A stretch of DNA of 64,000 bases from Acidobacteriota bacterium (GTDB taxonomy: Bacteria; Acidobacteriota; UBA890; WLXD01), in contig CBDBHB010000009.1 in NCBI GenBank assembly GCA_965205505.1, forward strand, positions 1,376,001 to 1,440,000, given 5' to 3'. The position numbers were made by a program, and so were the translations under genes. The notes beneath the pieces are model-generated. The model was not told the DNA's origin. It did not search any database and was given only the letters and a program-made list of their open reading frames with translations. Of this stretch, positions 27,285 through 63,938 are shown in pieces; within the stretch, counting starts at the first letter, position 1; every line of letters starts with the position of its first letter.

Positions 27285-27313
27285 TGGACCCTCGTGTGCC
27301 CCAACGATAGGCT
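27285..27313 (+). promoter_or_regulatory. repeated sigma70-like promoter TGGACC-N17-TAGGCT (copy 1; others at 28879, 34217, 41555, 43175, and 43731 with N16)
   Basis: Six copies keep both hexamers and their spacing while the spacer varies. Confidence 0.7.
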
Positions 27314-27347
27314 TCACGCGGTCACCCACCTCCCCCTCGGGAGCGCC

Positions 27348-27565
27348 ATGGAACCCGGCACCAAACTAGGTCCATACGAAATCACCGAGCAGCTCGGTGC
27401 TGGCGGTATGGGGCAGGTGTACCGAGCACGCGACACGACGCTGGATCGTGATGTCGCCATCAAGGTGCTGCCGGAGGACTTCGCCACCTGCGGAACTACA
27501 GCGGGTGGTTCCCGCGGGGCGGTGATCCGGTGGGCGGTCCTCGATTTCGGATTGGCAACCGGCTA
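27348..27565 (+). pseudogene. Ser/Thr kinase N-terminal remnant
   Basis: [47 protein letters not shown]...VLDFGLA; most of the domain is deleted. Confidence 0.85.
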
Positions 27566-27601
27566 TTCTCATGGCCGCTCGTAAAGGACGGAAGTCCCTG
27601 A

Positions 27602-28656
27602 ATGTATCTGTCCCCCCGCGATACCGACGGCCTGCCTATTTTTCTTGGCTTGGCCGTGCTCTTGTTCGGGGTTGCCTGCGCCCCTCAGGACGCGGCCCAA
27701 ACGCGAGCTTCGGACGCTATGGAGCCAGTCGCGGACCAAGCCGCTCCTCAGGGAGAGCATGCCGTCGTGACCATTCTGACTACGAACGGCGCCGACTTTC
27801 TAGGCTCGATGAACCCGCTGCAAGGGGAGTGGAGCTTCGCAGCGTGGGTCGAGATCGGCGGCAGGTCGTTTCTTTTCGATACGGGGTGGTCGCCGGACAA
27901 CGTTCTCTCCAACGCTGAGGTTCTGGGCATCGATCTATCGGCGGCGGAAGATCTCATCCTGAGCCACAACCACATGACCACACCGGCGGGATCGAGACCC
28001 TGAGAACGGTGCTATCGAAGCGAAACCCGAGCGCGCTTTCGCGTATCCACGTAGCGGAAGGCATCTTCGCCTCTCGACCCGGCCCGGACGGGGGCGAGAA
28101 CAACCCGATGATCGCGTCGCGCCAACGCCTCGAAGCAATGGGTTCGACCTTCATAATCTATGACGGGCCGGCCGAGATCTCGCCCGGCGTCTGGGTCACC
28201 GGCCCGGTCCCCAGAGTCCACGAAGAGAAAAACTACGACACGGGCCCCGACGCGGTCGTGGTTCTGGATGGCAAGCTCGTACCCGACGTCTTTCCCGAGA
28301 GCCAGTCTCTCGTCGTACTTGCTGCTGGCGGACCGATTTTCATAACGGGGTGCGGACACGCCGGCTTGATCAACACGCTCGATTACGGCCGGGCACAGAT
28401 CTCCGACCTGCCACCGCAGGCGGCGATCGGCGGCTTCCACGTCTACAACGCGTCCGAAGAGACTTTGCGTTGGACCTCGGAAAAGCTCGCCGAGGCGCGC
28501 CTCGGCAACTTCGTCGGTTCGCATTGCACCGGCTTCGAAGCTGTCTTGCGGATTCGGGAGCTGGCCGGGATGGAACGCGAGCACGCCGTCATTGGCGCAA
28601 TCGGCACCCGGTTCGAGACCAGCTCTGGGATTGTCCCTGGCAACATCAATCGCTGA
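27602..28656 (+). pseudogene. MBL-fold metallo-hydrolase lipoprotein (7,8-dihydropterin-6-methyl-aminobenzene synthase-like), frameshifted at ~27974
   Basis: GEWSFAAWVE, LFDTG, and SHNH-x-DHTGG broken by a 1-nt loss; then ESQSLVV, TGCGHAG, IGGFH, SHCTG. Confidence 0.8.
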
Positions 28657-28791
28657 GTGCTTGCCCTCCTCGACCCGCGACGCAGTGCCGGTCTCTCAAC
28701 TGTTCCATCGACGACTTTATGGCGCCCGATTCTGGGAGCCGTTTGTGTCGCCAGCGACGCCCCTATTACGACAGCTGTTTGTCTGCACCTT

Positions 28792-29087: not shown

Positions 29088-31799
29088 TTACTCGTGAGTC
29101 AGTGCCGACACCGGATCCATCGCGCTCGCTCGGCGCGCCGGCACGTAGCACGCCGCAGCGGTAACAAGCACAAGGGTGACGGCGAGGCCGGCGATGAGGT
29201 TCGGATCGAGCGCACTCATTCCATAGAGCAGGGCCTCGAGCACGCGAACGGAGGCCAGGGTGCCCGCGATGCCGAGGACGACTCCGAGGCCGACGGGCGC
29301 CAAACCGCCGCGCACGACCAGGGCCCGGATGTTCCCTCTCCTGGCACCCAGCGCAATCCGGATGCCGATCTCGTGCGTGCGTTGGGTGACGGTGTACGCA
29401 ACCACTCCGTACAGCCCGACCAGAGCGAGCAGGAGCGCGACGGCAGCGAAGATCCCACCGATCAACATGTGGAAGCGAGGACGTGCGAGAGAATCGAGAA
29501 TCCGACCGTCCAACGTCGACACGTCGAGGGTGTACAGGTCGTCGATCGACAGAATGGCCTCGCGGATTGCGGGCACGAACCCGAGGGGATCGGTCGTCGT
29601 CCGCACAATGAGGGATCCCTGGCGCCATGGGATGTACACCCGATATCCCTCGTTCTCCGCGATCCACCGGCCGTCGTCGAGCCTTCGATAGGACACATCC
29701 GGCACGACTCCGGCGACGGTCCAGCAGCAGCCGTAGAGCCCTAGTTTCTTGCCGATCGGGTCCTGGCCTGGCCACACGCCCGCGGCAAAGCTCTCGCTCA
29801 CAACGACCTTCCCGTACGCGTCCACCTCAGTGCAGACCCTGCAGCCCGTCATCGAGCTATAGCGACGCCAGTCGTTGACCCCATCCCATTCGGGGACATC
29901 TCCACCTCGAATGATCGGGATGCCCAATGTCTCGAAGTAACCGGGCGAGATGTACACGATCTTGCTCATCGTCATCTCCTCCACCGGCCAGTCCAGCCAG
30001 GTGCCCTTTTCATACTCCTGGAACTGGATCGGGCCAGCCCTGTACCCGTCCCCGTGCGAGAGTGGCGGGGTGCCGCGGGCAACCGAGATCACCCCCGGTA
30101 TGGATCGCACTGCCGCCAGGAGGTCATAGGCCTCGCGCCATTCCCGCTGCCGCACCTCCGCGCCTGCTGTACCCGCGGTTGGCGTGAACTGTTCCCTGCT
30201 GCCGTCCCTGACCTCCACGACCAAGATGTTCTCCGAGCGGAACCCGCGGTCGGCCACAAGGAGCTGGAAGAAGCTCTTGCCCAGAACCGTCCCTCCGACC
30301 ATGAGCATCAAAGTAAGGGCCACCTGAATCACGATCAGCGGCGTCGAGGAGCTTCGACGTCGGCCGCTGGTATTCGCAGACCTCGTTGCCTTGAGTGCTT
30401 CGACGAGATCGATGTCGGAGGCCCGGAGCGCTGGCAGCAGACCGAACAGGAGGCTCTCGGTCAGGAGCAGCTGGACTTGTCGGCGCCAGCTTGCCCCGAT
30501 GGCGAGGCGTACGGCCAGTTCGGCCTTGCGGCGCGAGCCCATCGCCAACAGTAAGTGGGCGAGATTCACGCACGCGATGAGCAGGACGAACCCGACGAGG
30601 CCCATGAGCGTGTAGAGGTCGGAGCCGAAATCACGTTCCACCAGCTCGTGGACCGGGGTGACGCCAATACTCCAGCCCTCCAGCGCCTCCGGATAGGCCT
30701 CCGCCAGATTCGACGTGATGCGTTGAAGGTCTCTTCGTACCTCTCCGACAGATCGGTCTGGGGCGACTCTCCCCAACACCATGAAGTTCTTGTTGTGGCG
30801 CGGTTGCTCAAAGGCCTGGTACCAAAGCGGCATATAGATGTCGATGTCAGATTGCAGCAGATTGCCCCGAAACGACACCGCCGGTAACGTGAATTGCTCC
30901 GGAAGCACTCCCACGACGGTAACTGGCGCCGAATTCAGTGAGATCTCGCTGCCGATGATGTCGGGATCCGCACCGTAGCGCCGAGCCCAGATGTCGTGGG
31001 TCAGGATGGCGATGGGTGGCGAGCGCCAACGTCGTAACCCCGTTTTTCCTCCGGAGTACCCCCAACTCGTCCCGGGCGGAGCAACGTCGTCCGGTAAGAA
31101 CCCGCGCCCCATCATCGGCGCAATCCCCACGACCGTGAAGAAGGACGCCGATACGGACGTTGCACGGACCCACTCCGCGGCCCCGGCGCCCCCCCCCCCA
31201 ACAGCCATGTACCCGTCGTCCCATTCCCACTCGGAGATATACGCCATGCCACTCAACGTGCGGTTCTGCTCCGCGTAGACGTTGTAGTTGAGGGCGTTGA
31301 TCGGGACATCGCCGTGGGCTTGGTTACCCGCCGCGACGTACTCGGGATTGGTTTCCCAGATCTGTACGAGTCGTTCCGGCTCGGGAAACGGCAGCGGTCG
31401 CAGGATGACGGCGTCAAGAACACTGAAAATGGCCGTGTTCGCCCCGATCCCGATCGCGATGGTCACGATGGCGACCGCAGCGTAGCCTGGTTCCTTGCGG
31501 AATCGACGAAGCGCGTAGGTGGCGTCTTCGATGATGTTGCCAAGCGCGGATCCTCGGGCGGCAGGCACGCCGGACTTCAGATCGACTCGGGAAATCCGAC
31601 CCGACGCCACGGCCCACAGGATTCGACGAGTCTGACGCCGGTACCACGCACGTGCCTGGCGCTCAGATGACCGTTTGGCTAGCGCTCGGAATTCCTCGAG
31701 CAAGTCGCCCCGGATCATCTCGCCCTTGAGACCACGCGGCAGGAGACCCTCCAGCATGGTCCGCAGGAAACCCTTGGGCAGCTCGGCCGGCGCGCTCAT
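29088..31799 (-). CDS. ADOP-family duplicated ABC permease (MacB_PCD/FtsX) with an internal ~54-aa in-frame deletion
   Basis: IGIGANTAIFSVLDAVILRPLPFPEPERLV, VLLIACVNLA, RTHEIGIRIALGA, PARRASAMDP; ATGA overlap with padR. Confidence 0.88.
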   Translation of the reverse strand: MSAPAELPKGFLRTMLEGLLPRGLKGEMIRGDLLEEFRALAKRSSERQARAWYRRQTRRILWAVASGRISRVDLKSGVPAARGSALGNIIEDATYALRRFRKEPGYAAVAIVTIAIGIGANTAIFSVLDAVILRPLPFPEPERLVQIWETNPEYVAAGNQAHGDVPINALNYNVYAEQNRTLSGMAYISEWEWDDGYMAVGGGGAGAAEWVRATSVSASFFTVVGIAPMMGRGFLPDDVAPPGTSWGYSGGKTGLRRWRSPPIAILTHDIWARRYGADPDIIGSEISLNSAPVTVVGVLPEQFTLPAVSFRGNLLQSDIDIYMPLWYQAFEQPRHNKNFMVLGRVAPDRSVGEVRRDLQRITSNLAEAYPEALEGWSIGVTPVHELVERDFGSDLYTLMGLVGFVLLIACVNLAHLLLAMGSRRKAELAVRLAIGASWRRQVQLLLTESLLFGLLPALRASDIDLVEALKATRSANTSGRRRSSSTPLIVIQVALTLMLMVGGTVLGKSFFQLLVADRGFRSENILVVEVRDGSREQFTPTAGTAGAEVRQREWREAYDLLAAVRSIPGVISVARGTPPLSHGDGYRAGPIQFQEYEKGTWLDWPVEEMTMSKIVYISPGYFETLGIPIIRGGDVPEWDGVNDWRRYSSMTGCRVCTEVDAYGKVVVSESFAAGVWPGQDPIGKKLGLYGCCWTVAGVVPDVSYRRLDDGRWIAENEGYRVYIPWRQGSLIVRTTTDPLGFVPAIREAILSIDDLYTLDVSTLDGRILDSLARPRFHMLIGGIFAAVALLLALVGLYGVVAYTVTQRTHEIGIRIALGARRGNIRALVVRGGLAPVGLGVVLGIAGTLASVRVLEALLYGMSALDPNLIAGLAVTLVLVTAAACYVPARRASAMDPVSALTHE

Positions 31800-32134
31800 G
31801 AGCGCTTGCCGGGGAGCAGGTCCTCGATCCCACTCCACATTCCGAGCAGAACGTCGCGCTGGGCCGCCACCGCCGTCAACCCGACTTCGGTCAGCAGGAA
31901 TCTACGTCGCCGGCTGCCGCCGCGTTCGTCCGTGCTCGCCGCTGTTTGCCACTCGAGAAGCCCACGCTTCTCCAGTCGCTCGAGCGCTGCGTACAGTGTT
32001 CCTCGGCTCATCTCGCGGCTGGCGTGTTCCTCGAGAACTCTCGCGATCTGGGGAGCGTAAGCCTGATCTCGCAGACGCAGTGCCGCCAGCAGCACCAAAT
32101 GCTCGAACTCGCCGAGGGCAGCTTTTCTTGCCAC
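31796..32134 (-). CDS. padR: PadR-family transcriptional regulator (acidobacterial type)
   Basis: LGEFEHLVLLAALRL, GTLYAALERLEKRG, RGGSRRRRFLLT. Confidence 0.9.
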   Translation of the reverse strand: MARKAALGEFEHLVLLAALRLRDQAYAPQIARVLEEHASREMSRGTLYAALERLEKRGLLEWQTAASTDERGGSRRRRFLLTEVGLTAVAAQRDVLLGMWSGIEDLLPGKRS

Positions 32135-32152
32135 GGGTGTCCTCCGCCACAG

Positions 32153-32868: not shown

Positions 32869-34080
32869 ATGAAGATACGGATTCGAACCAAGGCGGCCGG
32901 CGTTTTTCTGCTCTCGGGTTCCATGATGCTGTTGCCGGCTTGCACGCAAGTGTCCCCCGACGAACGTCGGGATTCCGGGACCCCGATTCCAGTCTCAGCG
33001 TCGCAGTCCGATGACGCCGAACTGGTATTTTCGAGTTTGGACATCGATCAGACGAATCGTGGCACCGTCAACATCAACGGCTACGACCGTCATTTCTCCG
33101 TCACGTTTCCCACCTCATATGACAATCAGGTAGCGTATCCGGTCGTTCTATTTTTTCATGGTTGTCGGTGTCGTCCGACAGTCGACGACGAAGCCGTTTT
33201 GAGCTATTTGGACTGGTCACCGAGGTTGGAACCGTATAAAGACGATTTCATCGTCGTCAGAATGTCTGCCTTTTCCGAGATGAAACCGGAGGTTCCCCGA
33301 GCGCCTGAGGATGGTGGAGCGCGCGGTATGTGGTTCTGGCATGAAGGCTTCGAGGCAAAACGGGACGATTTCGCGTTCCTTCATACGGTGCTCACAGCGT
33401 TACAGTCGTCCTCTGATATCAACATCGATCCGGAAAACATCTTTGGGGTCGGTCATTCATCCGGGGCGATCTTCTTGCTCTCGTACGTATTGGGTGGCCC
33501 AGTCGATCTGACCGATGCCGGCTTGAATGACACCTATGCGTTCAAAGCCATTTCCACGACGGGAGGCCCAGGGTTTCGACAGGGGATTGTCGATTTCAAG
33601 GAAAACACGCCCAGCACATTGCCCTCTGTCTTCCACATCCAGGGAGAGCGGGATGGAGGGGTATGGTTCAACGGGCAAGAGACGGGGAAACGAGGCATCA
33701 ATTTCTTAGAATTCGCCAATCCTTCCCCACCAACGGTCGTAGACGGATTCCGAGAGACGGTACATGGGCGTACGTACTCTGCCTGGGACGAGAACACCCC
33801 CTCGAATCCAAGCACCCTGCAACGATGGGCCGAGCATCTCGATCTCGAGTATTCGGGGTACGAGGATTATTCCCAATATTACCTCTATAATTTCCAGCCG
33901 GTATCGACTTCGGAGAACGTGCTCCTCGGGATGAGGATCAAGGATTGCCCGCATGTAGTAGCCGCGGATCAATATCAGGCTGATTTCTTCCGCGTCTTCT
34001 CACAGCAAGATGGTGACTTGCAAGCCTTCGACCGCAAGATCTCGCGAGACACCGCTATGAGGTTTTGTGGCCGTCCTTAA
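32869..34080 (+). CDS. alpha/beta-hydrolase lipoprotein (PHB-depolymerase/LpqC-like esterase)
   Basis: LLPAC lipobox, YPVVLFFHG, IDPENIFGVGHSSGA nucleophile elbow, HIQGERD; visibly more AT-rich than its flanks. Confidence 0.7.
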   Translation: MKIRIRTKAAGVFLLSGSMMLLPACTQVSPDERRDSGTPIPVSASQSDDAELVFSSLDIDQTNRGTVNINGYDRHFSVTFPTSYDNQVAYPVVLFFHGCRCRPTVDDEAVLSYLDWSPRLEPYKDDFIVVRMSAFSEMKPEVPRAPEDGGARGMWFWHEGFEAKRDDFAFLHTVLTALQSSSDINIDPENIFGVGHSSGAIFLLSYVLGGPVDLTDAGLNDTYAFKAISTTGGPGFRQGIVDFKENTPSTLPSVFHIQGERDGGVWFNGQETGKRGINFLEFANPSPPTVVDGFRETVHGRTYSAWDENTPSNPSTLQRWAEHLDLEYSGYEDYSQYYLYNFQPVSTSENVLLGMRIKDCPHVVAADQYQADFFRVFSQQDGDLQAFDRKISRDTAMRFCGRP

Positions 34081-34448: not shown

Positions 34449-36818
34449 TTGACCGCAGAGGTTCCCCTACACCTTGAGGAACACCTCGACGTGGCCACCG
34501 TCGTGGGCTCTGAGGTGCCCGCAGATGCTCCGGCCGTTATGGAATGGCCCTTCGACGAGCCCCAGGAGGATTGGAAGCCGGTAGTCCCATTCAACCCGAC
34601 GATCGATCCGGTCGAGGTCACGCAGTTCGACGACGCGCTGCGAGTCACGTATACGGACGGTACGAGGAATCCGAACGGCTTGCCGAACGGTGGCCTCGTT
34701 CTCGAGGCGCCCGATTGGAACTACGAGGATCTGGGGAACCTCGTGGTGCGTGCTCGCACCTCCGATGATGTCAGGAACTTCTGGCTCTTCTTCAATCGAC
34801 GCGAGGGGACCGATACAGATACAGACCTCCCCAATCCATTCGAGCATGAAGGCGAGACGGTCCCCGTTGTAAGCGACGGTACGGTCCAGACCTACCGGGC
34901 ACGGCTCGATTTCTTTCGGAGGGGTCCGCCACCGGAGGGACGGATTCGGCAGATCGCCCTGTGGTTCGCGCCCGACGATCTGGCCAGCATCGACATCCTT
35001 TCCATCACGCTGATTCCGAAGGTAGCCACCTATGCGGAGGCGGGCGCGGCCTCGCGCACGGAAATCCGCAACCGGATTCATCGACAGGCTCTGTATACGC
35101 ACACGCCGGGGCGCGTGGAGTATCGGGTGAAGATCCCGGAGGCCGGCCGGCTCGACTTCGCCATGGGTGTCCTGCGCGAAGACGTGCCCGTGACCTTTCG
35201 GGTTACGGCGATCCGTGATGGTGCCGAGGGTGGTGAACCGACCGCGGTGTTCGAGGAGCACTATGCGGACAAGGAGGCCTGGAGCCAACGTTCGGTGGAT
35301 CTGGCCGACTTTGCGGGCCAGACCGTGACGCTTGGCCTCGAGGCCGAATCCGAGGACGGTGGCCGGGTCGCTTTGTGGGGAGCGCCGACCGTAACGGGCG
35401 GCGACCAGTCGGTTCTTCGCAACGTCGTCTTCTACGTCTTCGACGGCGGTGCGGCGGACTACATGAGTGTTTACGGCTACAACCGTCGCACGACCCCGAC
35501 CCTGGAGCGGCTGGCCGAGGAGGGCGTCGTGTTCGAGCGAGCCTACAGCAATTCTTCCTGGACCGTGCCCTCGACGGCCTCCTTCATGACTTCCCTACAT
35601 ACCAGTGTGACGGGCGGCTCGCACCGTGCCGGCAACGTCAACCCTCTGCCTGCCGAGGCCGTGACGATGGCCGAGCACATGCACCGGGCCGGCTACCAGA
35701 CCGCGGTGTTCACGGGGAACCCCGGCGCCGGGACTTTGAGCGATCTCCAGCGGGGCGTCGATCTGTTTCGGGAAGACTGGGAGGACTTCTCCTACGGTGG
35801 GAATAATCACAAGGAGTCCTCGAAGTACCTCCATGAGGGATTCTGGAGCTGGCGGGAAGACTATCCCAGGCAGCCGTTCTGGGCGCACTTCCAGACTACT
35901 GACACGCACGAGGACTTTCCGGCTCCGCCACCCTTTGGCGGGCTCTTTGTCACTGCGGATGAGCGGGAGAGCATGAATGAGTCGTTTGATCGCCTAGGTC
36001 GTGGCGGGCACCGTCCCTATTCTCCCGCCTGGGATTCTACGGGGATCAGCCAGACGGCGCTCTACTCTGTGGGGAAGGGCCTGTACGACGAAGCGATGGC
36101 CCACAACGACTATCGGCTCGGGCAGCTCATCGACCGGCTGAAGGTTGAAGGGGAGTGGGACAATACGCTGTTGATCATCGGGGGCGATCACAGTATCCGG
36201 GCGGCTTACGCTGACATGGGACTCGTGCTCAGCGACCCGCTGCCTCCGCCATGGAGCCAGCCGATACTCCGGCCTAAGATCTCCAGGGTGCCCCTCATGT
36301 TCGTATGGCCGAGCCACATCGAGGGGGGACAGCGGATAGCCCCTCCCGTATCGATGATCGACGTGCTCCCCACCCTGCTCGACCTGGTGGGGCTGCCCCC
36401 TGCCGAGATCGCACAAGGGCAGTCGCTGGCTCCTCTGATGTTGGGTCGAGAGGGATGGGAGCCGCGACCGGTGATCCTCGACGAGTTCTACGCCGATTCC
36501 ACGACCGGCGAGCTGGAGGGCGTCATCGAGGTGGTGGACGGTCGCTGGGGCGCTTCGTTGGAGATCAACGACCCGGATGCGCGGCCGCGGTTCGGCCCCC
36601 GTCCCGTCCCACTGCTGCTCTACGACCTCTGGAACGATCCGATGGCTCTGTGGAGCCTGCACGAGGAACGGCCGGACCTCGTCCAAAAGTACACAGCCTT
36701 CTTGGAGGAGCAGTTCGAGGCCCACGTGGCCCTGTCGCAGTACTTCACGCCAGGCGAGGATTCGCCACTGACCCCGGAGCAGCTACGGTCTCTTCGGGCA
36801 CTTGGCTACATACGGTGA
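34449..36818 (+). CDS. sulfatase-like (alkaline phosphatase superfamily) protein; lipoprotein signal upstream in another frame
   Basis: YGYNRRTTPTLERLA, SSWTVPSTASFMTS, GDH, VSMIDVLPTLLDL, LYDLWNDP, LRSLRALGY. Confidence 0.85.
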   Translation: MTAEVPLHLEEHLDVATVVGSEVPADAPAVMEWPFDEPQEDWKPVVPFNPTIDPVEVTQFDDALRVTYTDGTRNPNGLPNGGLVLEAPDWNYEDLGNLVVRARTSDDVRNFWLFFNRREGTDTDTDLPNPFEHEGETVPVVSDGTVQTYRARLDFFRRGPPPEGRIRQIALWFAPDDLASIDILSITLIPKVATYAEAGAASRTEIRNRIHRQALYTHTPGRVEYRVKIPEAGRLDFAMGVLREDVPVTFRVTAIRDGAEGGEPTAVFEEHYADKEAWSQRSVDLADFAGQTVTLGLEAESEDGGRVALWGAPTVTGGDQSVLRNVVFYVFDGGAADYMSVYGYNRRTTPTLERLAEEGVVFERAYSNSSWTVPSTASFMTSLHTSVTGGSHRAGNVNPLPAEAVTMAEHMHRAGYQTAVFTGNPGAGTLSDLQRGVDLFREDWEDFSYGGNNHKESSKYLHEGFWSWREDYPRQPFWAHFQTTDTHEDFPAPPPFGGLFVTADERESMNESFDRLGRGGHRPYSPAWDSTGISQTALYSVGKGLYDEAMAHNDYRLGQLIDRLKVEGEWDNTLLIIGGDHSIRAAYADMGLVLSDPLPPPWSQPILRPKISRVPLMFVWPSHIEGGQRIAPPVSMIDVLPTLLDLVGLPPAEIAQGQSLAPLMLGREGWEPRPVILDEFYADSTTGELEGVIEVVDGRWGASLEINDPDARPRFGPRPVPLLLYDLWNDPMALWSLHEERPDLVQKYTAFLEEQFEAHVALSQYFTPGEDSPLTPEQLRSLRALGYIR

Positions 36819-36914: not shown

Positions 36915-37063
36915 GTCGGCGGATTCCTGTCCGACGTGCCGTGGCGCGCAGACCAGCTGGGCATTAGGCTCTGGACCGGTAGAGCTTGGACAGGAGAGAA
37001 ACCGGTCGGGACTCGAGAACCGACGTTTCGTGTAGCTACGGCGTCAGAGAGTCGGGAGGAGCT

Positions 37064-38989
37064 ATGTCCAGCAGCGATGATCGTGATCTCGGGATGCACC
37101 GGGAGATTACTCGTCGCGACTTCGTCTCCGGTGTCAGCGTTGCGCTGAGCGGCAGCCTCACGTTCCCATGGGCGCAGACGAACGCCTTGGCGAGCCCTGC
37201 GGGTCCGGGAGGAGTCTCACAGGCCCTCGCCGACACGTATCCACCCATCCGCACCGGTATGCGCGGCAGCCACGACGGCTCCTACGAGGTTGCCCATCAG
37301 CTTGTCGAAGGCGTGCGCTGGGACAACGCGGAGGAGACGGGTGAGCTCTACGATCTGGTCGTGGTTGGCGGTGGCCTCAGTGGCCTCGCGGCGGCGTGGT
37401 TCTACCAAGAGGCTGTTTCCGGCGCCCGCATCCTGATTCTCGACAACCACGACGACTTCGGCGGTCATGCCAAGCGCAACGAGTTCCGGCTCGACGGTCG
37501 GATGTTCCTGTCAAATGGCGGCACGGTCTTTATCTCCAACCTGAACGAGTACGGTGAAGGAGCCCAGCGCCTGATCCGCGGGATTGGCATCGACGTAAGC
37601 CGTTACTCCGAATTCGTCGATAGCGACCTGTACAGCTCGCTCGGCCTGCGCAGGTCGGTTTTCTTCGACCGCGAGACGTTCGGCACCGATCGGCTGCTGG
37701 TAGGCGAAGGCAGGCCCTCTTGGCGCGAGTTCCTGGCGCGCGCGCCCCTGTCCGAAACGGCACGTGATGACCTTGTAAGACTCCACGAGCCGAACATCGA
37801 TTACCTGGCGCACCTCAGCTTGGAGGAGAAGGTCGAGTTTCTTCGTAACACGAGCTACGAAGACTTTCTCTTGAAGGTGTCCCAGGTAGGTCGCGAGGCA
37901 ATCTCCTTCCTCGAGACCTCCGGCGGTTGGACCATCGGCCTCGATGGCGTCCCCGCCTGGCTCGGCGCCGGCCGCTGGCCTGGGACCACCGGGCTGGGGC
38001 TCGGCGACGACGATGATGATGCCGATGATACCGGCGAGGAGCGTGCTTTCTTCCAGTTTCCGGATGGCAACGCGTCGATCGCGCGTCTGATCGTCCGGTC
38101 GCTGATCCCAGAGGTCGCTCCCGGCAGCACGATGGAGGACATCGTCGACGCTCAGTTCGACTATGGCAAGCTCGATCGGGAGGGCTCGGCTGTCCGCGTG
38201 CGGCTGGAGAGCACAGCGGTGCGGGTAGCTCACCGTGGCGATCGGCGAACCGCCAAGGAGGTCGAGGTCACCTACGTCCGCGACGGCCACGCCCGGCGCG
38301 TGCGCGCCGGTCGTTGCGTGCTCGCCTGTTACAACGCCGTGATCCCTTTGATTTGCGAGGAACTGCCGGATATTCAAAAACAGGCGCTATCGAACGCACT
38401 CAAGTCGCCACTTGTCTACACCAACGTCCTGATCCGCAACTGGACCGCCTTCGCCAGGCTCGGTGTGAGCAGGGTGCGCTGCCCGGGGAGTTATTTCGAG
38501 AACGTGAATGTGCCGCCACCCATCAGCATCGGCAACTACCGACACGCTGGTACGCCCGAGGAGCCCATCGTCGTGCGCATGTGGCGCGTTCCCCTCGTAC
38601 CGGAGGCCCGCGGGCGGTCCGTGGCTGAGCAGTGGAAGGCAGCCCGCCATGGTCTGTTGGCGACGACGTTCGCGACCTTCGAGCGCAAGATCAGGGACCA
38701 GCTCGGCCGGATACTGTCGCCCGGAGGCTTCGACCCGGCGCGCGACATCGCGGCGATAACCGTGAATCGCTGGCCGCACGGCTATGCCAAAGGCCTCGAT
38801 CCGAAGACGGGTCAGATCGCGTGGAGGCCCGATGAGGTGCCGCCCGAGCGTGCCCCGTGGGTCACCGCCCGGCATCCTCGTGGCCGGATCGCCATCGCCA
38901 ACTCCGACACCGGCGCACGGGCCATGACCGAGATCGCCATCGATCAGGCTCACCGCGCCGTGAGTGAGCTCTTGTCGGCGAAGACCTAG
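37064..38989 (+). CDS. Tat-exported FAD oxidoreductase, spermidine dehydrogenase (SpdH)-like
   Basis: ITRRDFV Tat motif, YPPIRTGMRGSHDGS, GGGLSG, DNHDDFGGHAKRNEF, FPDGNAS, NRWPHGY, IANSD. Confidence 0.85.
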   Translation: MSSSDDRDLGMHREITRRDFVSGVSVALSGSLTFPWAQTNALASPAGPGGVSQALADTYPPIRTGMRGSHDGSYEVAHQLVEGVRWDNAEETGELYDLVVVGGGLSGLAAAWFYQEAVSGARILILDNHDDFGGHAKRNEFRLDGRMFLSNGGTVFISNLNEYGEGAQRLIRGIGIDVSRYSEFVDSDLYSSLGLRRSVFFDRETFGTDRLLVGEGRPSWREFLARAPLSETARDDLVRLHEPNIDYLAHLSLEEKVEFLRNTSYEDFLLKVSQVGREAISFLETSGGWTIGLDGVPAWLGAGRWPGTTGLGLGDDDDDADDTGEERAFFQFPDGNASIARLIVRSLIPEVAPGSTMEDIVDAQFDYGKLDREGSAVRVRLESTAVRVAHRGDRRTAKEVEVTYVRDGHARRVRAGRCVLACYNAVIPLICEELPDIQKQALSNALKSPLVYTNVLIRNWTAFARLGVSRVRCPGSYFENVNVPPPISIGNYRHAGTPEEPIVVRMWRVPLVPEARGRSVAEQWKAARHGLLATTFATFERKIRDQLGRILSPGGFDPARDIAAITVNRWPHGYAKGLDPKTGQIAWRPDEVPPERAPWVTARHPRGRIAIANSDTGARAMTEIAIDQAHRAVSELLSAKT

Positions 38990-39033: not shown

Positions 39034-39183
39034 GCGTCTCCAAAACGTCTCCACGACCGGGGTTCACACCAGTAGACGCCAGTCGACTGGAGTCGACTAC
39101 TTGAGCCACCGTTAACGGTTACCTGCCAACGAGAAACGGCGAAAGCCGTGCGCCATCAACCACTTAGCAGAATCCGCTAGATC
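39034..39183 (+). repeat. 150-bp direct repeat, copy 1 (att-like)
   Basis: Matches 41176-41325 with 4 mismatches; contains GTCTCCA x2 and the palindromes CCAGTCGACTGG and ACCGTTAACGGT. Confidence 0.92.
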
Positions 39184-41614: not shown

Positions 41615-42028
41615 ATGGAACCCGGCACTCGACTAGGCCAGTACGAAATCCTCGACCGCCTCGGTGCAGGTGGAATGGGCGAGGTCTACCGCGCACGCGA
41701 TACGACGCTGGATCGTGACGTCGCGATCAAGGTGCTGCCTGAGGACTTTGCTGACGACGCCAACCGGCTGGCTCGCTTCGAGCGCGAAGCCAAGCTGCTC
41801 GCCTCGTTGAACCACCCCAACATCGCCACGATCTTCGGCTTCGAGGAATCGGATGGCGTGCGCTTCATCGCTATGGAGCTGGTCGAGGGTGTGCAACCAT
41901 CCGGCGAAAGGACGCAGATCTCGACCGATTCCGGGGGTTGGCCACTGTGGTCCAGGGACGGGGCGGCGATCTACTACGTGCTAGTGCCAGCTACGAACTT
42001 CAAATCAGCAAAGAGAACCTCAGGATGA
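41615..42028 (+). pseudogene. collapsed kinase-propeller mini-ORF (kinase N-lobe joined in frame to the last propeller blade)
   Basis: [12 protein letters not shown]...FIAMELVEG|[29 protein letters not shown]; the stop overlaps the ectC start (ATGA). Confidence 0.85.
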
Positions 42029-42420
42029 TTCTTCGTACATTTGCACAATTGAAGGGGACACCGAATTTTGTCGAAGCGGATGGTTTCGTGAGCGCCCGCC
42101 TGGCGGTCGCGTCCGACAACCTGGGCTTCACCGTAACCGAGGCCGTCGGCGCGGCAGACATCGACCTCGAGGTCGAGCATAAGAATCACATCGAGGCCGT
42201 TTACATTCTCGAGGGAACCGGCACCGTCGAGATCATCGAGACCGGGGAGATTTATAGACTGGAGCCGGGAGTTTTCTATGCTTTCGACAAACATGAGCGT
42301 CACCGCTACAAGCTGGATACCGAAGTGCGCGCCATTGCCATTTTCAACCCGCCGCTGGTTGGCGACGAAGTCAACGACGAATCGGGTGGATACGCTCTCC
42401 CGGACGATGCCGAAAGCTGA
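42025..42420 (+). CDS. ectC: ectoine synthase-like cupin (solitary EctC)
   Basis: MILRT...SARL..DNLGF...[17 protein letters not shown]...[15 protein letters not shown]...[17 protein letters not shown]. Confidence 0.82.
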
Positions 42421-46936: not shown

Positions 46937-46970
46937 GATCGGCTGGCGCGGTTCGAGCGCGAAGCGAAGC
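46937..46970 (+). repeat. short kinase fragment ([11 protein letters not shown])
   Basis: GATCGGCTGGCGCGGTTCGAGCGCGAAGCGAAGC; resembles 41764-41795. Confidence 0.6.
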
Positions 46971-51381: not shown

Positions 51382-51735
51382 GCGGTGTGCTTCTTGGAGG
51401 CTGTCGCCTTGGCGCGTGCGAATCGCGCCAGCGCCTCAAGGCGTTCGGCGTCTTCGGCCAGCCGCTCACGCCCGGTGGTTGTAATGCGGAAGTAGCGGCG
51501 CCGACCGCTTGCCCCGGGCGGCCGCTCATCGGGACGGGTCAGCTCTTGTATGAGACCGATCTCGACGAGCTGCTCGAGCGTGCCATACAACATTGCCGGC
51601 CACAGGCGCAGACCGCCGTCGGTTTGCTGCAACACCTGATCGACAATTCCCGAGCCATGCCGCGGCTCGTCGGACAAGCGCCAGCAGGATGTGAAACCAG
51701 CGTGGCTGCAGGGTCTGGTTGCGGCGAGGAGCCAT
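51378..51735 (-). pseudogene. padR: PadR-family regulator, frameshifted near 51675
   Basis: MAPRRNQTLQPRWFHILLAL / SDEPRHGSGI...AMLYGTLEQL...RRRYFRITTTGR; ATGA overlap with ADOP. Confidence 0.82.
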
Positions 51736-51754
51736 GATGTAGACGATCTCCTGT

Positions 51755-51781
51755 TATCAATTGGTATTTTATTAATTGATA
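51755..51781. promoter_or_regulatory. AT-rich inverted repeat upstream of padR, candidate operator
   Basis: TATCAATT-N11-AATTGATA. Confidence 0.55.
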
Positions 51782-51994
51782 GTATAGAAGACGGCGAACT
51801 CGTCGCGCCGTTCGTGTGCGACGAGTTCATCGTCGTCGCGGTCGGCGGCGTCCACCACGCAGCCGAGTTCGTCGCACTCGCATTGCTGTGAGCGCCGGTG
51901 CGTCTACGCAGCCAGCCCGGCCGTGTTGGCTCAGCAGGAGCGCGACGACCAAGAGCACCGTCTCCGCCGGCATGAATCCCTGACGCGGTCGCCG

Positions 51995-52702
51995 CTACCC
52001 TCCACTACAGGGTTTGAGGGTGACCCAGATGAGCTCGATCGGCTCGTCGCCGTTGTTGCCCGAGTCGTGCTGCTCCGACAGTTCGACGGCCTCCATCCAG
52101 CCGACAGAACCGTCGGGCGAAGGCCGGGTGCCGACTCTCTCGCTGCCATCGCGACGCCCGGACCACACACCACCCTTGACATGAACGTAGACCTGCTCGC
52201 CCGGGTGGGAGTGCACCCCCTCCCACTGCCCCGGCTCGACGACGAACTTCTGCACCACGACGTGATCGTTCTCCAGCAGCAGTTCGCCCGGAATGTTCGG
52301 ATAAAACGTGCCGGTGTGATGGTTCGCCACTAACGTGCAAGGTTTGAGGGTGATCCAGACCAACTCGATTGGGGTGTCTCCGGTGTTGCCGGAATTGTGT
52401 TGCTCCGACAGATCGATGGCATCCATCCATCCGACGGAGCCGGCGGGCGAAGGCTGGGTGCCGATTCTCTCGCGGCCGCCACGACGCCCAGACCACACAC
52501 CGCCCTTGATGGTCACCCAGAGCTGGTTGCCTGGGTGTGGATGGACCCCCTCCCACTGCCCCGGCTCGACGACGAACTTCTGCACCACGACGCGATCGTT
52601 CTCCAGCAGCAGCTCGCCCGGAATATCCGGATAAAAGGTACCGATCTCCTGGCCGGCAAAGAGCAATCCGGGGAGCGCCAGGATGACGGCGGCCAGCATC
52701 AT
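51995..52702 (-). CDS. secreted tandem-cupin protein with a recent internal duplication
   Basis: Two ~110-aa repeats (LLENDxVVVQKFVVEPGQWEGVHxHPG...EQHxSGN); DNA period 330 nt. Confidence 0.8.
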   Translation of the reverse strand: MMLAAVILALPGLLFAGQEIGTFYPDIPGELLLENDRVVVQKFVVEPGQWEGVHPHPGNQLWVTIKGGVWSGRRGGRERIGTQPSPAGSVGWMDAIDLSEQHNSGNTGDTPIELVWITLKPCTLVANHHTGTFYPNIPGELLLENDHVVVQKFVVEPGQWEGVHSHPGEQVYVHVKGGVWSGRRDGSERVGTRPSPDGSVGWMEAVELSEQHDSGNNGDEPIELIWVTLKPCSGG

Positions 52703-52906
52703 ACGGATTGGGTTTCGGGTCGCTGCACTCGCGGGTGCTCGGCACGGAACGCGGCATCGGTTGCTGCTCGTGAGGTCCATGGACGGCATCAGCTGACTCC
52801 TGGTCGAAGGACACTTGGGTCGCAGATCGGGAAACGACTCTATCAACATAAGGCCGCCAGTGGTCAAGAGCACACCTCGCTAACATGCCGATCTGATCCC
52901 ACTCCT

Positions 52907-54892
52907 TCAGGTTCGCTCGGCCCAGGGATATTGGAACTCGGGCCGAATGACGTCGGTGATCAGCTCTTGGACCGCACGGTGCGCCTGGTCGAACGCCGCC
53001 TGTGTAAGACACGTCGCGGCCGCGTCGGAGTTCGCGATGCCGATCCGCCCGAACCGCTTACGGCCCAATACCCAGGGAGCCTCGTCGTATCCCCAGTCGG
53101 GGTCGAAGAGGTCATTGCCCGCTCCCGCGTACCCGTGGGGCCAGCGGTTGACGAAGATGGCCTCGATGTCCCGGGCGGGATCGAAGCCTCCCTCCCCCAG
53201 GGCACGAGCAAGCTGATCCCTGATGCCACGCTCGAAGGTCTCGAACGACATGGCCAGAAGCTCCTCCCGTGCGGCGCGCCACTGGTCCCGTACGGAGAGC
53301 CCCGGAGCGTTCGGAGATGCCCAGAGCCTTACGACGACCGGTTCGTCGGGCAACCGGCCGGTCTGGTATTCCCCGAAGCTGTTGCTCCAATCGTCAAGGC
53401 TGACATTCTCGAAGTACGCGCTCGGGCAATGGATGCGCGCCACACCGAGCCGCTCGAACGCTCGCCAGCCGCGAACCACGACGTTAGTCGCAACGAAGGG
53501 TCTGCGCACCGCCATATGCAGGTGTTCTTTCTGGTCCTCCGGCAGCTCCGGACACAGATACGGGATCACCGAGTTGTAGCAAGCCATCACGCAGGTGCCC
53601 CCGCGCACGCGATGCGCTTGGCCGTCCCGCACGTACGTGACCTCCACCGCGCTCGCCTTGGCCCGATCGCCCACGTGGTGAGCGTTTACCACCGTGCTGT
53701 TGAGACGGATGCGCACGTCGTTTTCTGCCCGGTCGAGGGTCGAATACCGGACCCGCGTCGGCACCGAGTCGTTCATCGTCTCGCCCGGTAGCGAACCCGG
53801 AATCAGCCAGCGCACGAGCAGCCGGGCGACGCCAGCCATTCCGTCGGGGAAGTGCATGTCATCGAACGGATTCTCCAGTCCAGGGAACCCGTCTCTCGGC
53901 GGCGGCTCCCCGAGCCCGAGGCCCTGCAGCCCGGGCAAGCTGCTGTACCGGAACGCGGCCCAGCCGCTCATCGTATCGATACCGGCAATGCCATTGGCAT
54001 CCGGGGCGCGGCGCTTGAAGAAGGGGATCACGTCCGGGTCGACGCCGACGACGTTCAGCAGATAGTCCTGATAGCTCATCTTGCGGAGCCGGGCGATCTT
54101 CTCCTGCACCGACAATCCGGGGAAGAAATCCTCCTGCGTCTGGTACAGCTTCGCGATGTCCTTCTGCACCCGGTCCGAGAGCGGCGTCTTCTGAAGCCAT
54201 TCCGTCCACGCCTCCGGCTCGTCCGATCCGGGCTCTCCTACGACCAGCCGATCCTCACCGAACGTCTCCTCGTCGAACAAGACCGCGCTTCCCAAGCCCC
54301 GCTCTCGCGCCCGTAAGCTGCGTCCCACGTTCGCACGCCTGTACACCTCCGCATCCAGACCGATGTCGTGCATCAACTCCAGGCCTTCGTACGTATAGGC
54401 TCCGGTGATGTACGCCGTACCGCCGTAGCTGATGACCTGGCGCCCCTCGACCATGGCCTCGTTCCGCTGCGCGTGCCCTCCGAAGTCGTCGTGGTTCTCC
54501 AGAATCAGGACCCTCGCCTCAGGCATCGCCTTGCGGAAGTAGTAGGCCGCCCCGAGACCGCTCAACCCGCCGCCCACCACGATCAGGTCGTACTCTTCTC
54601 CGGTTTCCTGCGGGTCGTCCCACACCTCGCCGTCCCGCATGCGATGAGCCACCTCGAACGACCCCGGATGGCTGCCCCGCATCCCCGTACGTGTCGGCGG
54701 ATAGTACGTCTCCTGGCTCACAGATTGATCGACGACTGGAGATGCGGCCGGAGCCAGCCGGGCATCGCGCCCCTGCGCCCCCACATCCCCGGGCGCAAGG
54801 GCCGCTCCCGTGATCGCGATGCTCGTTCCGCTCACGAAGTCGCGACGGTTGATTTCCCGGTTCATGCCCAGCTCACGATCGCTCTTCTTCAT
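52907..54892 (-). CDS. Tat-exported SpdH-like FAD oxidoreductase (second paralog)
   Basis: INRRDFV, YPPTRTGMRGSHPGS, ENHDDFGGHAQRNE, FPDG, NRWPHGY, IANSD. Confidence 0.85.
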   Translation of the reverse strand: MKKSDRELGMNREINRRDFVSGTSIAITGAALAPGDVGAQGRDARLAPAASPVVDQSVSQETYYPPTRTGMRGSHPGSFEVAHRMRDGEVWDDPQETGEEYDLIVVGGGLSGLGAAYYFRKAMPEARVLILENHDDFGGHAQRNEAMVEGRQVISYGGTAYITGAYTYEGLELMHDIGLDAEVYRRANVGRSLRARERGLGSAVLFDEETFGEDRLVVGEPGSDEPEAWTEWLQKTPLSDRVQKDIAKLYQTQEDFFPGLSVQEKIARLRKMSYQDYLLNVVGVDPDVIPFFKRRAPDANGIAGIDTMSGWAAFRYSSLPGLQGLGLGEPPPRDGFPGLENPFDDMHFPDGMAGVARLLVRWLIPGSLPGETMNDSVPTRVRYSTLDRAENDVRIRLNSTVVNAHHVGDRAKASAVEVTYVRDGQAHRVRGGTCVMACYNSVIPYLCPELPEDQKEHLHMAVRRPFVATNVVVRGWRAFERLGVARIHCPSAYFENVSLDDWSNSFGEYQTGRLPDEPVVVRLWASPNAPGLSVRDQWRAAREELLAMSFETFERGIRDQLARALGEGGFDPARDIEAIFVNRWPHGYAGAGNDLFDPDWGYDEAPWVLGRKRFGRIGIANSDAAATCLTQAAFDQAHRAVQELITDVIRPEFQYPWAERT

Positions 54893-61095: not shown

Positions 61096-63757
61096 TGGTC
61101 GGCAAGACGCTCGGCCACTACGAGATCCTCGCCCCGCTCGGTGAAGGCGGCATGGGAGAGGTGTATCGGGCACGCGATACCACGCTGGATCGTGATGTCG
61201 CTATCAAGGTGCTGCCCGAGGACTTCGCCACCGACTCTGGCCGCCTGGCTCGATTCGAGCGCGAAGCCAAGCTGCTTGCCTCCCTGAATCACCCCAACAT
61301 CGCCACCATCTTCGGCTTCGAGGAATCCGACGGTGTGCGCTTCATCGCCATGGAACTGGTCGAGGGACAGAGTCTCGCCGAGCGGATCACCGCTTCCGGT
61401 CGCATCCCGGTCGATGACACGCTAGAGATCGCCCGCCGGATTGCGCTGGCGCTCGAAGCCGCGCACGAGGCTGGCGTCATCCATCGCGACTTGAAGCCGG
61501 CCAACGTGCAGGTAGCAACCGATGGCACCGTCAAGGTGCTCGACTTCGGGCTGGCTAAAGCCTACGAGGCGGAAGGCAGCGAGCCGTCGTCCGATCTCAG
61601 CCACTCACCCACGATGATGGCCGCCACGGGCACCGGCGTGATTATGGGCACAGCTCCCTACATGAGCCCGGAGCAGGCGCGTGGTCAGCCAGTCGACAAG
61701 CGGAGCGACATCTGGTCGTTCGGCTGTGTTCTGTACCAGATGCTTCACAGGGAAGGCGGTTTTCGGCGGCAAGACCGTGAGCGATGTCATCGCTGCCATC
61801 ATCGAGCGTGAGCCGGATTGGAGCAGTCTGCCCGACCGTCTGCATCCTAGGCTGAGGGAATTACTCGAGCGTTGCCTGGCGAAAGACCCCCGAAGCCGAT
61901 GGCACGACGTTGCCGACGTCCGGCTTGATGTCGAAGGAGTCCAGAGAGATCCACACCGCACGGAGCAAAGGGTGCCTCCCTTCGACCGGGGCAAGCAAAG
62001 AACCTCGTCGGTGTGGGCGCTGGCTAGCTTCGTGTTGGGCGCGGTTGCGACGGGTGTGGTGATGTGGAGCCTGCCAGGCGCTGTCGATACGGATACTCGT
62101 ACGGTGCGCTTCTCTTACTCGCTGCCGCTGACTCAGACGTGGACAGTTCGTCACGGCAACCTCTTGGCCGTCTCGCCCGATGGGAGCAGGATCGCATACG
62201 TTGTAGATCAGCAGCTCTATCTACGCGGGCTGGATCAGCTGGAGGGCACACCGCTTCCCGGAACCGACGGTGCCGCGAGCCCGTTCTTCTCGCCGGATGG
62301 GAACTGGGTGGGGTTTGCGACCGAAGGCAGTCTGAAGAGAGTCTCGGTCGCGGGAGGCGCTCCACTCGATATCTCGGCCGCCTGGAGGGTGACGGGCGCG
62401 ACCTGGGGAAGGGACGACACCATTATCTTCGGCGGCGGTGCCGGTTCCGGTCTACTGCAGGTTCCGGTGTCAGGAGGAATACCGCAGCCGGTGACTTTTC
62501 CAGATCCCGAAAAGGGCGAGGTCCACCATGGCCTTCCCCAGATGTTGCCCGATGGGAAGACGGTGGTGTTTACGGTTGCGACCGGGGAGGGGTCCCGTCT
62601 CGCGCTGTTGTCGTTGGAAACGGGCAGCTGGCGGGAGCTCCTGCCTGCCGGCTCGGGGGCTCAGTACTTATCTGCCGGGTACTTGCTGTTTTCTGAAGAA
62701 GGCAATCTGCGGCTTGTTCCGTTTGACCTCGACGATGGCGAGGTGACCGACTCCATCGTTCCTGTATTAGATGGCATCGAGTGGGAGAGTATCGCCGGTT
62801 TGGAATTAGCATCTTTCGCCGTGTCGCCAGCCGGTAACTTGGCGTACATCCCCGGCGATCTGCGGTTTCCCCTGACAACCCCGGTGTGGGTCGATCGCAA
62901 CGGGCGCGAAACGAGCATCGACGTCGATCCGGCTCTGTACCTCGGAGCGCATATCTCACCGGACGGACGGCGAGTCGCCTTCACCCGCGTTGCAGCAGAC
63001 GGACATGGAATCGGCGACGTGTGGGTTCTCGAGCTCGGCGCAAATCGAATGATTCCGGTCGTTCGCGAAGGGGGCTGTCTACAACGCAATCTGGACGCCG
63101 GACGGCGCTATGCTCACCTTTACGGTCAACGGCAATCTGTTTGAGACGTTGGTGGACCGTGACGGCGCACCCACGAATCTCCTGAGGCGCGAGAACTACC
63201 AGTTATCTCGGTCGTGGTCTCCGAATGGGTAGGACCTGGCGTTTGTCGATTGGTCGCCGGCTGGATTGAGCGTCTGGATCTTGTCCCGTGAGGGCGACCT
63301 ATCGCCGTTAATGGATTCGAATTCGACCTCGAATTCGACCTCGCCCCGGTTCTCTCCCCAAGGCGGTTGGCTTGCGTATCTTTCTGACGAATCTGGACAG
63401 CCAGAAGTCTACGTTCGCCGTCACCCGGGCTCCGACCGAGGCCAGAGAGTGTCGAGCGAAGGAGGGCTGCAGCCGGTTTGGTCAGTCGACGGAAAGGAAC
63501 TGTTCTACCGCAGTGGAGATCGGATGATGGCTGTGCCGATCACAACGGAGCCCGATCTCTCGGTCGGCGTGGGTCGCGAACTCTGGGAAAGACCCTACTT
63601 CGACACCGGGATGCTCGGTGGCAGTTATGACGTTGCTGCTGATGGCCGTTTTCTGATGCTCAGCGTCTCCGACTCTTCCTACTCGCTGGGCACACAGGTC
63701 AGTGTGGTCACCAACTGGTTCGACGAGCTAAAGCGGCTCGCGCCGACGGACCCGTAG
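61095..63757 (+). pseudogene. Ser/Thr kinase + TM + TolB-like propeller; frameshifts near 61745 and 63072, in-frame TAG at 63230
   Basis: Kinase domain nearly identical to the 55502 copy; TGATG coupling with the previous gene; ends [16 protein letters not shown]. Confidence 0.87.
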
Positions 63758-63794
63758 CGCCCTCAGCCGACGCTCGCCACGTACTCCGCGTGGT

Positions 63795-63938
63795 CTCGCC
63801 CGCTTCGAGCAGGAAGCCCGCGCTGCCGCTGCCCTGAACCACCCACACATCGCAGCCGTTCACGACGTGGGCACCGAAGACGGCACCCACTTCATGGTGC
63901 AGGAGTACCTGGAGGGAGACACGCTCCGGGAGCCGCTA
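63795..63938 (+). pseudogene. internal kinase fragment
   Basis: [48 protein letters not shown], near-identical to 58496-58639. Confidence 0.85.

Follow-up and report, generated by a model that had tools for sequence, protein, structure and literature searches.

Conserved 5' and 3' boundaries delimit copying between members of a gene family at the trypanosome VSG loci (70-bp repeats and 3' ends) and at Neisseria pilS, where variants of the same gene are exchanged for antigenic variation. Conserved gene pieces also mark the arrays associated with C-terminal displacement in Rhs proteins and the 'orphan' effector-immunity arrays of type VI secretion (T6SS); in the parts of the account that treat such arrays, a stub of the conserved gene stands before each variable module (Kirchberger et al. 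2017, PMC5361080). The model offered in those parts combines a homologous anchor with an illegitimate joint, followed by exchange of whole modules through ordinary homologous recombination, with no integrase. Large paralog families of Ser/Thr kinases, transporters and oxidoreductases have been reported from an acidobacterial genome (Challacombe et al. 2011, PMC3174227), and the passages devoted to them describe old, diverged paralogs (<50% identity) and mention no kinase stubs; 'pseudogene' is a word absent from its main text. Here we analyse a 64,000-nt stretch of an Acidobacteriota chromosome (hereafter the window), in which 14 pieces of a Ser/Thr-kinase/PD40-propeller gene family, all on the + strand, are interspersed with ~15 unrelated genes, which we call cargo. 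We favour, with some reservation, the reading that this is a decaying, recombination-scrambled tandem array of hyper-expanded kinase paralogs, whose termini act as portable homology in a variable region of the chromosome.

Kinase gene ends in co-oriented arrays

The genome that holds the window (G000; 5.98 Mb, 9 contigs, 64% G+C) was compared with four congeneric genomes, among them G002, G003 and G004, the last being its closest relative. Contigs are labelled C8, C9 and so on; the window is G000:C9:1376001-1440000, and coordinates without a prefix are window positions. Pieces of the family were located by self-BLASTN, alignments, TBLASTN and an nhmmer DNA profile built from seven full-length genes, in which the ATG is position 150 and the stop lies at ~2850. 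Between 27276 and 63940 there are seven short 5' stubs (A to G), three short 3' stubs, three frameshifted full-length genes (K1 to K3) and one internal piece (K4), with nhmmer E values from ~1e-6 (stub G and the 44-nt 3' stub) to 1e-92. K1-K3 each carry, in one gene, a Pkinase domain (Pfam, 1e-48 to 3e-52) followed by PD40 (TolB-like) beta-propeller repeats, and intact copies of 880-903 residues are present elsewhere in G000. A preliminary description, made from the letters of the window, had listed most of these pieces. All seven of its 5' starts on the + strand were confirmed, its 3' pieces (placed at 28792, 42673 and 48401) were recovered within the limits given in Table 1, and the complete gene-to-gene junction that it saw is real (28787-29087). 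Its three near-complete genes are present at 55502-63759, each broken by frameshifts; its internal piece at 63795 stands, and the one at 46937 was reduced to an 11-residue match (E 1.9-8.7) or a 49-residue alignment (E 0.074), neither of them significant.

Across G000 the profile gave 140 matches. Ten are full length, about four of these being intact open reading frames (ORFs); 44 are short 5' stubs, ending at profile 166-448, and 24 are short 3' stubs, starting at 2472-2810. The remainder comprises 3 long 5' and 2 long 3' truncations, 13 internal pieces, 14 matches to the kinase domain only, which may be other kinase genes, and 30 generic PD40 matches. Short stubs, which end no more than ~300 nt past the ATG, account for 44 of the 47 5'-anchored truncations, where uniform breakpoints predict 13% (p ~1e-35), and they would still account for 44 of 61 if all 14 ambiguous matches were counted as long truncations; the end-biased retention whose absence the preliminary description would have taken as a refutation is borne out. 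As a detection control, three family genes outside the profile were cut into pieces and searched. With 100-nt pieces 51-59% of positions were detectable, the whole first ~850 nt included, and with 150-nt pieces 66-88%; since control pieces are mostly detectable, the scarcity of internal fragments is not a detection artefact. Among 12 exact-type copies of the 3' stub, a long frame is found in the intact gene only, so other long genes do not end in these 3' stubs. The sequence past the inner breakpoints is unique except in two pairs, which makes most stubs separate events, and no common junction element, such as the end of an insertion sequence or of a miniature inverted-repeat transposable element (MITE), was found behind the breakpoints. 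Co-oriented stub clusters occur at no fewer than eight places in G000, and in seven stretches of G004 whole genes and short end stubs are mingled in the same way. The view of the stubs as what remains of a tandem, co-oriented array of kinase genes is supported.

The ends that persist are also the best-conserved parts of the gene. Mean pairwise identity among the seven full genes is 0.69-0.77 at profile 142-320 and 0.38-0.63 in the body, and it is 0.65 in the interval at profile 2784, just before the stop codon; the best-conserved DNA comprises the ~75-nt leader with the first ~150-300 coding nt, and the last ~45-110 nt. A 44-nt 3' unit (42673-42716), which holds a short stem CGAGCTGAAGCGGCTCG, recurs with 100% identity at many loci of G002, G003 and G004, genomes whose single-copy flanking DNA is only 80-93% identical to that of G000. 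This identity spans paralogs and species, synonymous sites included, and non-coding stubs are conserved as strongly as the ends of whole genes. The uniformity of the 3' units points to gene conversion or to a role at the nucleotide level. Every stub of the window has an exact match of 24-60 nt to copies elsewhere (BLAST), a length range usable by RecA-type recombination. The glycine-loop codons read GCTGGCGG in many copies (27400-27420, 28990-29010, 32400-32420, 58390-58410), and half of the 5' stub breakpoints (profile 198-254) fall just behind this motif; we take it to be one letter off the Chi sequence of E. coli, an idea only, as Chi in this phylum may differ.

Could the joints between stubs and cargo be products of assembly? 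Repeats of this kind break short-read assemblies, and contigs of all four public runs consulted, which come from four studies and one of which may be the source sample, end inside stubs. Chimeric joins at repeats, a possibility raised in the preliminary description, are nevertheless scarcely credible here. Contigs from the four runs bridge each stub-cargo junction examined: stub A through the MBL-like (metallo-beta-lactamase-like) gene to the 3' stub (27459-28821), stub B through ADOP to stub C (29000-32419), stub C through the 403-residue ORF to stub D (32574-34257), stub F through ectC to the 3' stub (41827-42702), and from that 3' stub through stub G into the Rieske gene (42689-44027). Several junctions are also present in the genomes of other species, and a repeat-induced join would run on into another kinase copy, not into cargo.

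Module exchange within the genus

Synteny with the congeners is lost between ~24.8 kb and ~64.9 kb of the window. The left flank matches G004:C6 at 92-93%, up to 24783 only, and the right flank resumes at ~64918, which corresponds to G004:C3:4847, 4.8 kb from the end of that contig. Those 4.8 kb hold two 5' stubs with modules that best match G000 C8 and other parts of C9; the same chromosomal site is therefore a stub array in both species, with different cargo, which the preliminary description had listed among possible kinds of support. Another that it listed, the same cargo bounded by kinase ends at other loci, is likewise borne out in the relatives. Single cargo genes find matches of 87-98% scattered over the congeners, often inside other kinase arrays, and the modules of the stretch with ADOP, cupin and FAD1 are found at 94-98% in kinase arrays of G004. 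There, the FAD1 module (52909-55020) lies at 94% identity cleanly between two whole kinase genes on C14, and the cupin module (51824-52874) at 98% between a stub and a kinase start on C15.

The junction of stub E with the oxidoreductase gene FAD2 (…GCACGCGACAC joined to ..TCGGCGGATT…) is the best resolved. It is the same in the window, in G004:C13 and at G004:C15:1360 kb, and what lies to its left is different each time: in the window an operon-type head directly behind the sulfatase stop, at C15:1360 kb a complete leader-bearing head of another subtype, and on C13 a 35-nt remnant. At G004:C15:528 kb the place that stub E and FAD2 take in the window, behind the same sulfatase, is occupied by a longer kinase (profile 111-1334), and in G003 FAD2 is found at 96% without any stub. 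On the simplest reading of these sequences, there would have been one illegitimate joint, whose head was later exchanged by crossovers falling inside ~90 nt of kinase homology. The junction of stub D with the sulfatase gene recurs together with its module at G000:C9:1136116, where a whole kinase follows, and at G004:C15:525 kb. The sulfatase and FAD2 modules have been propagated as units together with their stubs. The preliminary description saw in the kinase array a landing pad whose termini serve as homology anchors, functionally like an integron; the stub E-FAD2 junction, common to three loci with different left stub parts, speaks for the anchors, while the likeness to an integron did not survive the comparison given below.

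The pyridoxal-phosphate (PLP)-dependent decarboxylase gene is single-copy in G000; it was found in none of the four congeners and in 7 of 25 other genomes of the order, at 64-69% identity. The 150-nt direct repeats on either side of it contain a perfect palindrome, CCAGTCGACTGG. Elsewhere this repeat is a spacer located after a kinase 3' end and before a tRNA-Leu(CAA) fragment and a kinase head, and partial copies stand behind kinase 3' ends at C8:611 kb and at 48555-48600 of the window. The arrangement resembles the outcome of an integration in which a resident repeat served for recombination. No excised form was seen: of 65 joints in contigs of the four runs 15 were listed, and none of these connects one 150-nt repeat to the other or removes a cargo unit, which does not allow absence to be inferred, as contigs drop rare variants; at least one listed joint (28844->32493, the letters between matching the junction of the K3 end with K4) belongs to a paralogous copy elsewhere in G000.

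The 26-nt fragment behind the second repeat (41326-41351) is followed by the same spacer as is found upstream of the intact kinase at G000:C8:572776. The repeat itself was considered as a tRNA or transfer-messenger RNA (tmRNA) and rejected: ARAGORN reported no gene anywhere in the window, 25000-64000 was without an Rfam match at E<=0.1, the tmRNA of the genome lies elsewhere, and only the adjoining 26 nt match tRNA-Leu(CAA). Fragments of ~57 nt from the 3' end of this tRNA lie near kinase copies at C8:567479, C8:572617 and C9:483079, the first two in series downstream of the intact tRNA-Leu(CAA) gene on C8 (C8:552064-552148), with integrase matches in the vicinity of both the intact tRNA (C8:549409) and C9:483079 (C9:483226). 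This suggests tandem integrative islands at tRNA-Leu(CAA) that carry kinase arrays. Of what marks a tRNA island, an integrase and direct repeats of the tRNA end, the window holds the 26-nt fragment only.

How much of this could passive decay explain? Dead kinase genes would then be large, neutral 'safe harbours', in which insertions land because they are harmful elsewhere, and the ends would outlast internal deletions because the neighbours are under selection, the termini having no mechanistic role. Pseudogenes are indeed many, with K1-K3 frameshifted and only about four in ten full-length copies intact. Forms with internal deletions exist (C8:328642 joins profile 226 to 1343, and stub F joins 426 to ~2530), cargo edges lie right at start and stop codons, broken genes occur among the cargo, and some shuffled modules have no kinase stub. 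The alternative offered in the preliminary description, in which a tandem array decays passively while insertions pepper it, fits the greater part of the observations. However, decay leaves unexplained that three loci have the same stub-cargo junction behind different stub heads, that direct repeats of 150 nt surround a newly gained gene and that non-coding 3' stubs are 100% identical across species. Internal deletion also predicts adjacent pairs of 5' and 3' pieces, whereas the usual sequel to a 5' stub is cargo with another 5' stub beyond it. As a complete account, decay without a role for the termini is possible and, in our judgement, rather unlikely.

In the reading that we favour, of a scrambled array with portable termini, kinase copies would be born by tandem duplication and would die often, in the birth-and-death manner of a young, very large family. 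Illegitimate joins would create the stub-cargo junctions. The near-identical termini and the spacer repeats between kinases would then offer homology that is portable. Ordinary RecA-type ectopic recombination, together with gene conversion, would use it to move modules of a stub and its neighbouring gene between arrays, where new genes would also settle; a minority of 5' stubs may survive by supplying a leader to the gene behind. No dedicated recombinase or site would be involved. The arrangement of single-gene modules does in fact vary from species to species within the genus.

Several points weigh against this reading. Homologous recombination by itself does not account for the concentration of inner breakpoints in the ~300 nt behind the ATG, and internal deletions under selection on the neighbour genes could also leave the ends only. 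The stub counts are not all independent, because modules have been duplicated as units. FAD1 in G003 has no stub within 8 kb, an instance of shuffling without kinase pieces, and several modules, Rieske and cupin among them, break exactly at their own start or stop codon; the kinase ends may be bystanders in a generally mosaic accessory genome. Crossovers at the termini are inferred from one well-resolved case, that of stub E and FAD2, in which identities of 85-96% do not allow the point of exchange to be fixed. Finally, the junctions are 99%+ identical in the four runs for many contigs, so that turnover within the species is not fast.

A bolder reading, which we consider doubtful, would make the locus an integrase-independent cassette platform. 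Termini and spacer repeats would be standing homology arms kept uniform by gene conversion, and the general recombination machinery would insert, remove and trade linear or circular DNA with one such arm, from array to array and among the species of the genus. The decarboxylase would be an example caught in the act, and the stubs would be selected as keeping the pool of accessory genes exchangeable. What would be the implications if the reading that we favour holds? A bacterium without obvious mobile-element machinery at the site could still reshuffle and acquire metabolic genes, with an expanded sensor-kinase family supplying dozens of short, near-identical homology patches across the chromosome. 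The logic of anchor plus displacement would be extended from toxin loci to ordinary metabolic genes, and this would help to explain the large, paralog-rich, poorly syntenic genomes of Acidobacteriota.

Leaders and layout of the array

A long ORF on the same strand begins between -10 and +40 nt of the stop of the truncated kinase ORF at 7 of 36 stubs, compared with 6.4% in a control of 20,000 random stop codons (p 0.007). In the window, stub A is separated from the MBL-like ORF by a 17-nt gap, stub D overlaps the sulfatase gene and stub F shares an ATGA overlap with the start of ectC at 42025. Some stubs are probably in use as leaders of the gene that follows; most are not. At least two cargo families, a sulfatase and an FAD oxidoreductase, appear to have adopted a kinase head as their 5' region. 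Selected regulatory re-use would go further, the 5' unit acting as a portable promoter or leader and the 3' unit as a terminator or RNA element, so as to drive or insulate cargo expression. It would fit the co-oriented gene that follows five of the seven window stubs, the stop/start proximity at stubs A, D and F, the coupling in excess of the control, and the propagation of the stub D-sulfatase and stub E-FAD2 modules as units. Set against this, 29 of 36 stubs (~80%) are uncoupled, stubs B and G face convergent genes, no sigma-70-like promoter reaches threshold, the hairpin in the 5' untranslated region (UTR) is weak (-5.2 kcal/mol) with essentially no covariation, and the 3' unit has no terminator-like T-run behind it. 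We consider regulatory re-use an improbable explanation of the array.

The preliminary description had called the conserved upstream segment a promoter. The ~75-nt leader is real, but in a scan of 27200-29200 no site reached the sigma-70 consensus threshold, and the candidate TGGACC-17-TAGGCT, which scores 7/12, is a guess. The 5'-UTR hairpin, tried as a conserved RNA, has 7 pairs with one double-change pair among 9 sequences and is not convincing. In practice, the output of gene callers will contain numerous tiny 'kinase' ORFs and chimeric leaders here.

The features of the array are collected in Table 1; the cargo also includes some unassigned ORFs, and both a 5' and a 3' stub flank only 3 of ~8 cargo segments. 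The presence of ADOP permeases and PadR regulators fits an acidobacterial genome. Of the two genes that had been placed between a 5' and a 3' piece, ectC is firmly identified, and the MBL label is weak. No DNA-level match to the MBL-like gene was found in the four congeners.

Table 1. Kinase pieces, cargo genes and repeats between 27276 and 63940 of the window
Feature	Position	Strand	Remarks
5' stub A	27276-27488	+	ATG 27348; profile 79-290; TBLASTN 81% over residues 1-47; conserved upstream leader and first 47 codons; truncated ORF stop 27584, 17 nt before next ATG
MBL-like cargo, two ORFs that differ in frame	27602..28003, 28009..28656	+	May be an MBL-fold gene with a frameshift; sole Pfam match Lactamase_B at E 0.19; frame breaks near 28000, behind an SHNH motif
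3' stub	28787-28845	+	Profile 2796-2854; weak protein similarity reaches back to 28690
5' stub B	28861-29087	+	ATG 28941; profile 70-306; end coincides exactly with stop codon of convergent ADOP gene
ADOP duplicated permease and PadR regulator, cargo	29088..31838, 31796..32134	-	TIGR03434 8.5e-196; PadR 5.5e-10
5' stub C	32334-32603	+	ATG 32353; profile 131-416; 86% to 58336-58609; K2-like type, without conserved upstream leader
403-residue cargo ORF	32869..34080	+	Lower G+C; hydrolase-like matches weak only
5' stub D	34210-34361	+	ATG 34279; profile 81-232
Sulfatase, cargo	34449..36818	+	Pfam Sulfatase 3.4e-36
5' stub E	36793-36914	+	ATG ~36828; profile 116-239; starts operon-style straight after sulfatase stop
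FAD/NAD-binding oxidoreductase FAD2, cargo	36986..38989	+	Pfam; 96% matches in G003, G004
150-nt direct repeats	39034-39183, 41176-41325		97% alike; self-BLASTN, alignment
PLP-dependent decarboxylase, cargo	39182..41080	-	Pfam; between the 150-nt repeats
tRNA-Leu(CAA) 3'-end fragment	41326-41351	+	26 nt, identical
5' stub F	41485-41891	+	ATG 41615; profile 5-426
Short internal kinase piece (propeller region)	41903-41980	+	Between stub F and ectC; 92% to G004:C13:40249-40326 (inside a kinase 3' portion); weak TBLASTN
Ectoine synthase ectC, cargo	42025..42420	+	Pfam 2.8e-37; left edge of module (41982) the same in G002 and G003
3' stub, 44 nt	42673-42716	+
5' stub G	43716-43808	+	ATG 43792, 16 coding nt only; profile 73-166, E 1.2e-6
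Rieske oxygenase, cargo	43973..45520	-
Broken aminopeptidase P, cargo	45715..46008, 46063..46722	-	N-terminal ORF (AMP_N) and weak C-terminal remnant
Doubtful decayed kinase 5' piece	46847..46969	+	Best E 0.074
DAO oxidoreductase, cargo	47004..48218	-
3' stub	48382-48555	+	Profile 2693-2865; TBLASTN
Second ADOP permease and PadR, cargo	48658..51830	-
Cupin-domain ORF, cargo	51995..52873	-
FAD oxidoreductase FAD1, cargo	52907..54892	-
K1, near-complete kinase-PD40 gene	55502-58225	+	Split into 2-3 frames, as are K2 and K3
K2, near-complete kinase-PD40 gene	58340-61087	+	Frameshift from a 68-nt insertion at 59214-59281 relative to two homologues, not a homopolymer slip
K3, near-complete kinase-PD40 gene	61095-63759	+
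K4, internal kinase piece	63793-63940	+	Joined directly to K3 3' end; profile 301-448; 91% to 58496-58640

Some of the cargo genes are mosaics or carry repeats of their own. FAD2 (37079-38787) and FAD1 (54880-53127) are inverted paralogues at 64-83% identity, and their oxidoreductase family has many copies, at 67-96%, in all congeners, with an identity mosaic inside the genes. The Rieske gene is likewise mosaic, at 96% and then 89%. At G004:C15 (L028 7457-7539) the end of a MITE copy falls exactly at the CTAG formed by the stop codon of its homologue there; the same MITE, of 279 bp, lies at 11232-11509 of the window. The cupin ORF contains a 330-nt tandem duplication (52008-52643, 83% identity).

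Comparison with known systems

Conserved ends frame variable bodies at the VSG and pilS loci as well; here it is unrelated genes that occupy the space between the ends, and nothing indicates an expression site. With respect to the acidobacterial families of PMC3174227, as described in the passages cited above, the copies at this locus are young, in tandem and largely reduced to end stubs. A limited full-text search of the literature returned no description of end stubs punctuating cargo.

The likeness to integrons and chromosomal super-integrons lies in the co-oriented repeats that separate single-gene modules and in cargo content that differs between relatives. It could be taken further, to a dedicated cassette platform in which an unrecognised recombinase acts on the conserved ends or the spacer repeats. 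The ultraconserved 3' unit, a gene between 150-nt direct repeats, as after integration of a circle, and the integrase fragments and tRNA-Leu att remnants near several other arrays would all suit such a platform. Yet the window, as the preliminary description had noted, has no integrase: neither IntI nor any other tyrosine recombinase is encoded in its 64 kb (none of the 31 PF00589 matches of G000 falls there). Nor was an attC-like site or a fixed crossover found, the breakpoints being scattered over profile 166-448 and 2472-2810 with unique flanks; no Rfam family was matched, and the only recurrent hairpin is the short stem inside the 3' coding end, which leaves no common hairpin site. The cargo lies on both strands, several of its genes are broken, and the ADOP genes bring their own PadR regulators, unlike the co-oriented, mostly promoterless genes of integron cassettes. 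Few cargo segments have stubs at both ends, and FAD1 in G003 has been shuffled without a kinase piece. We regard a dedicated recombinase of this kind as very unlikely.

Homology-facilitated illegitimate recombination, which is recA-dependent and combines one anchor with a microhomology joint on incoming DNA, would find its anchors here in the exact matches of 24-60 nt. The Rhs/T6SS arrays share with this locus the repeated stub and its variable follower, as seven 5' stubs are each followed by a different module. They differ in the nature of the anchor and of the cargo. The anchor at this locus is supplied by a sensor kinase, with its promoter-proximal head (and its tail), and not by the end of a toxin core. 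The cargo genes, metabolic and transport genes found in either orientation, are of the permease, sulfatase, oxidoreductase, decarboxylase, ectC and Rieske kinds, and toxin/immunity logic is absent from them; the stubs here are, moreover, dispersed over at least eight clusters of the genome. The locus is not an integron, and the described systems to which it appears closest in mechanism are the Rhs/T6SS displacement arrays.

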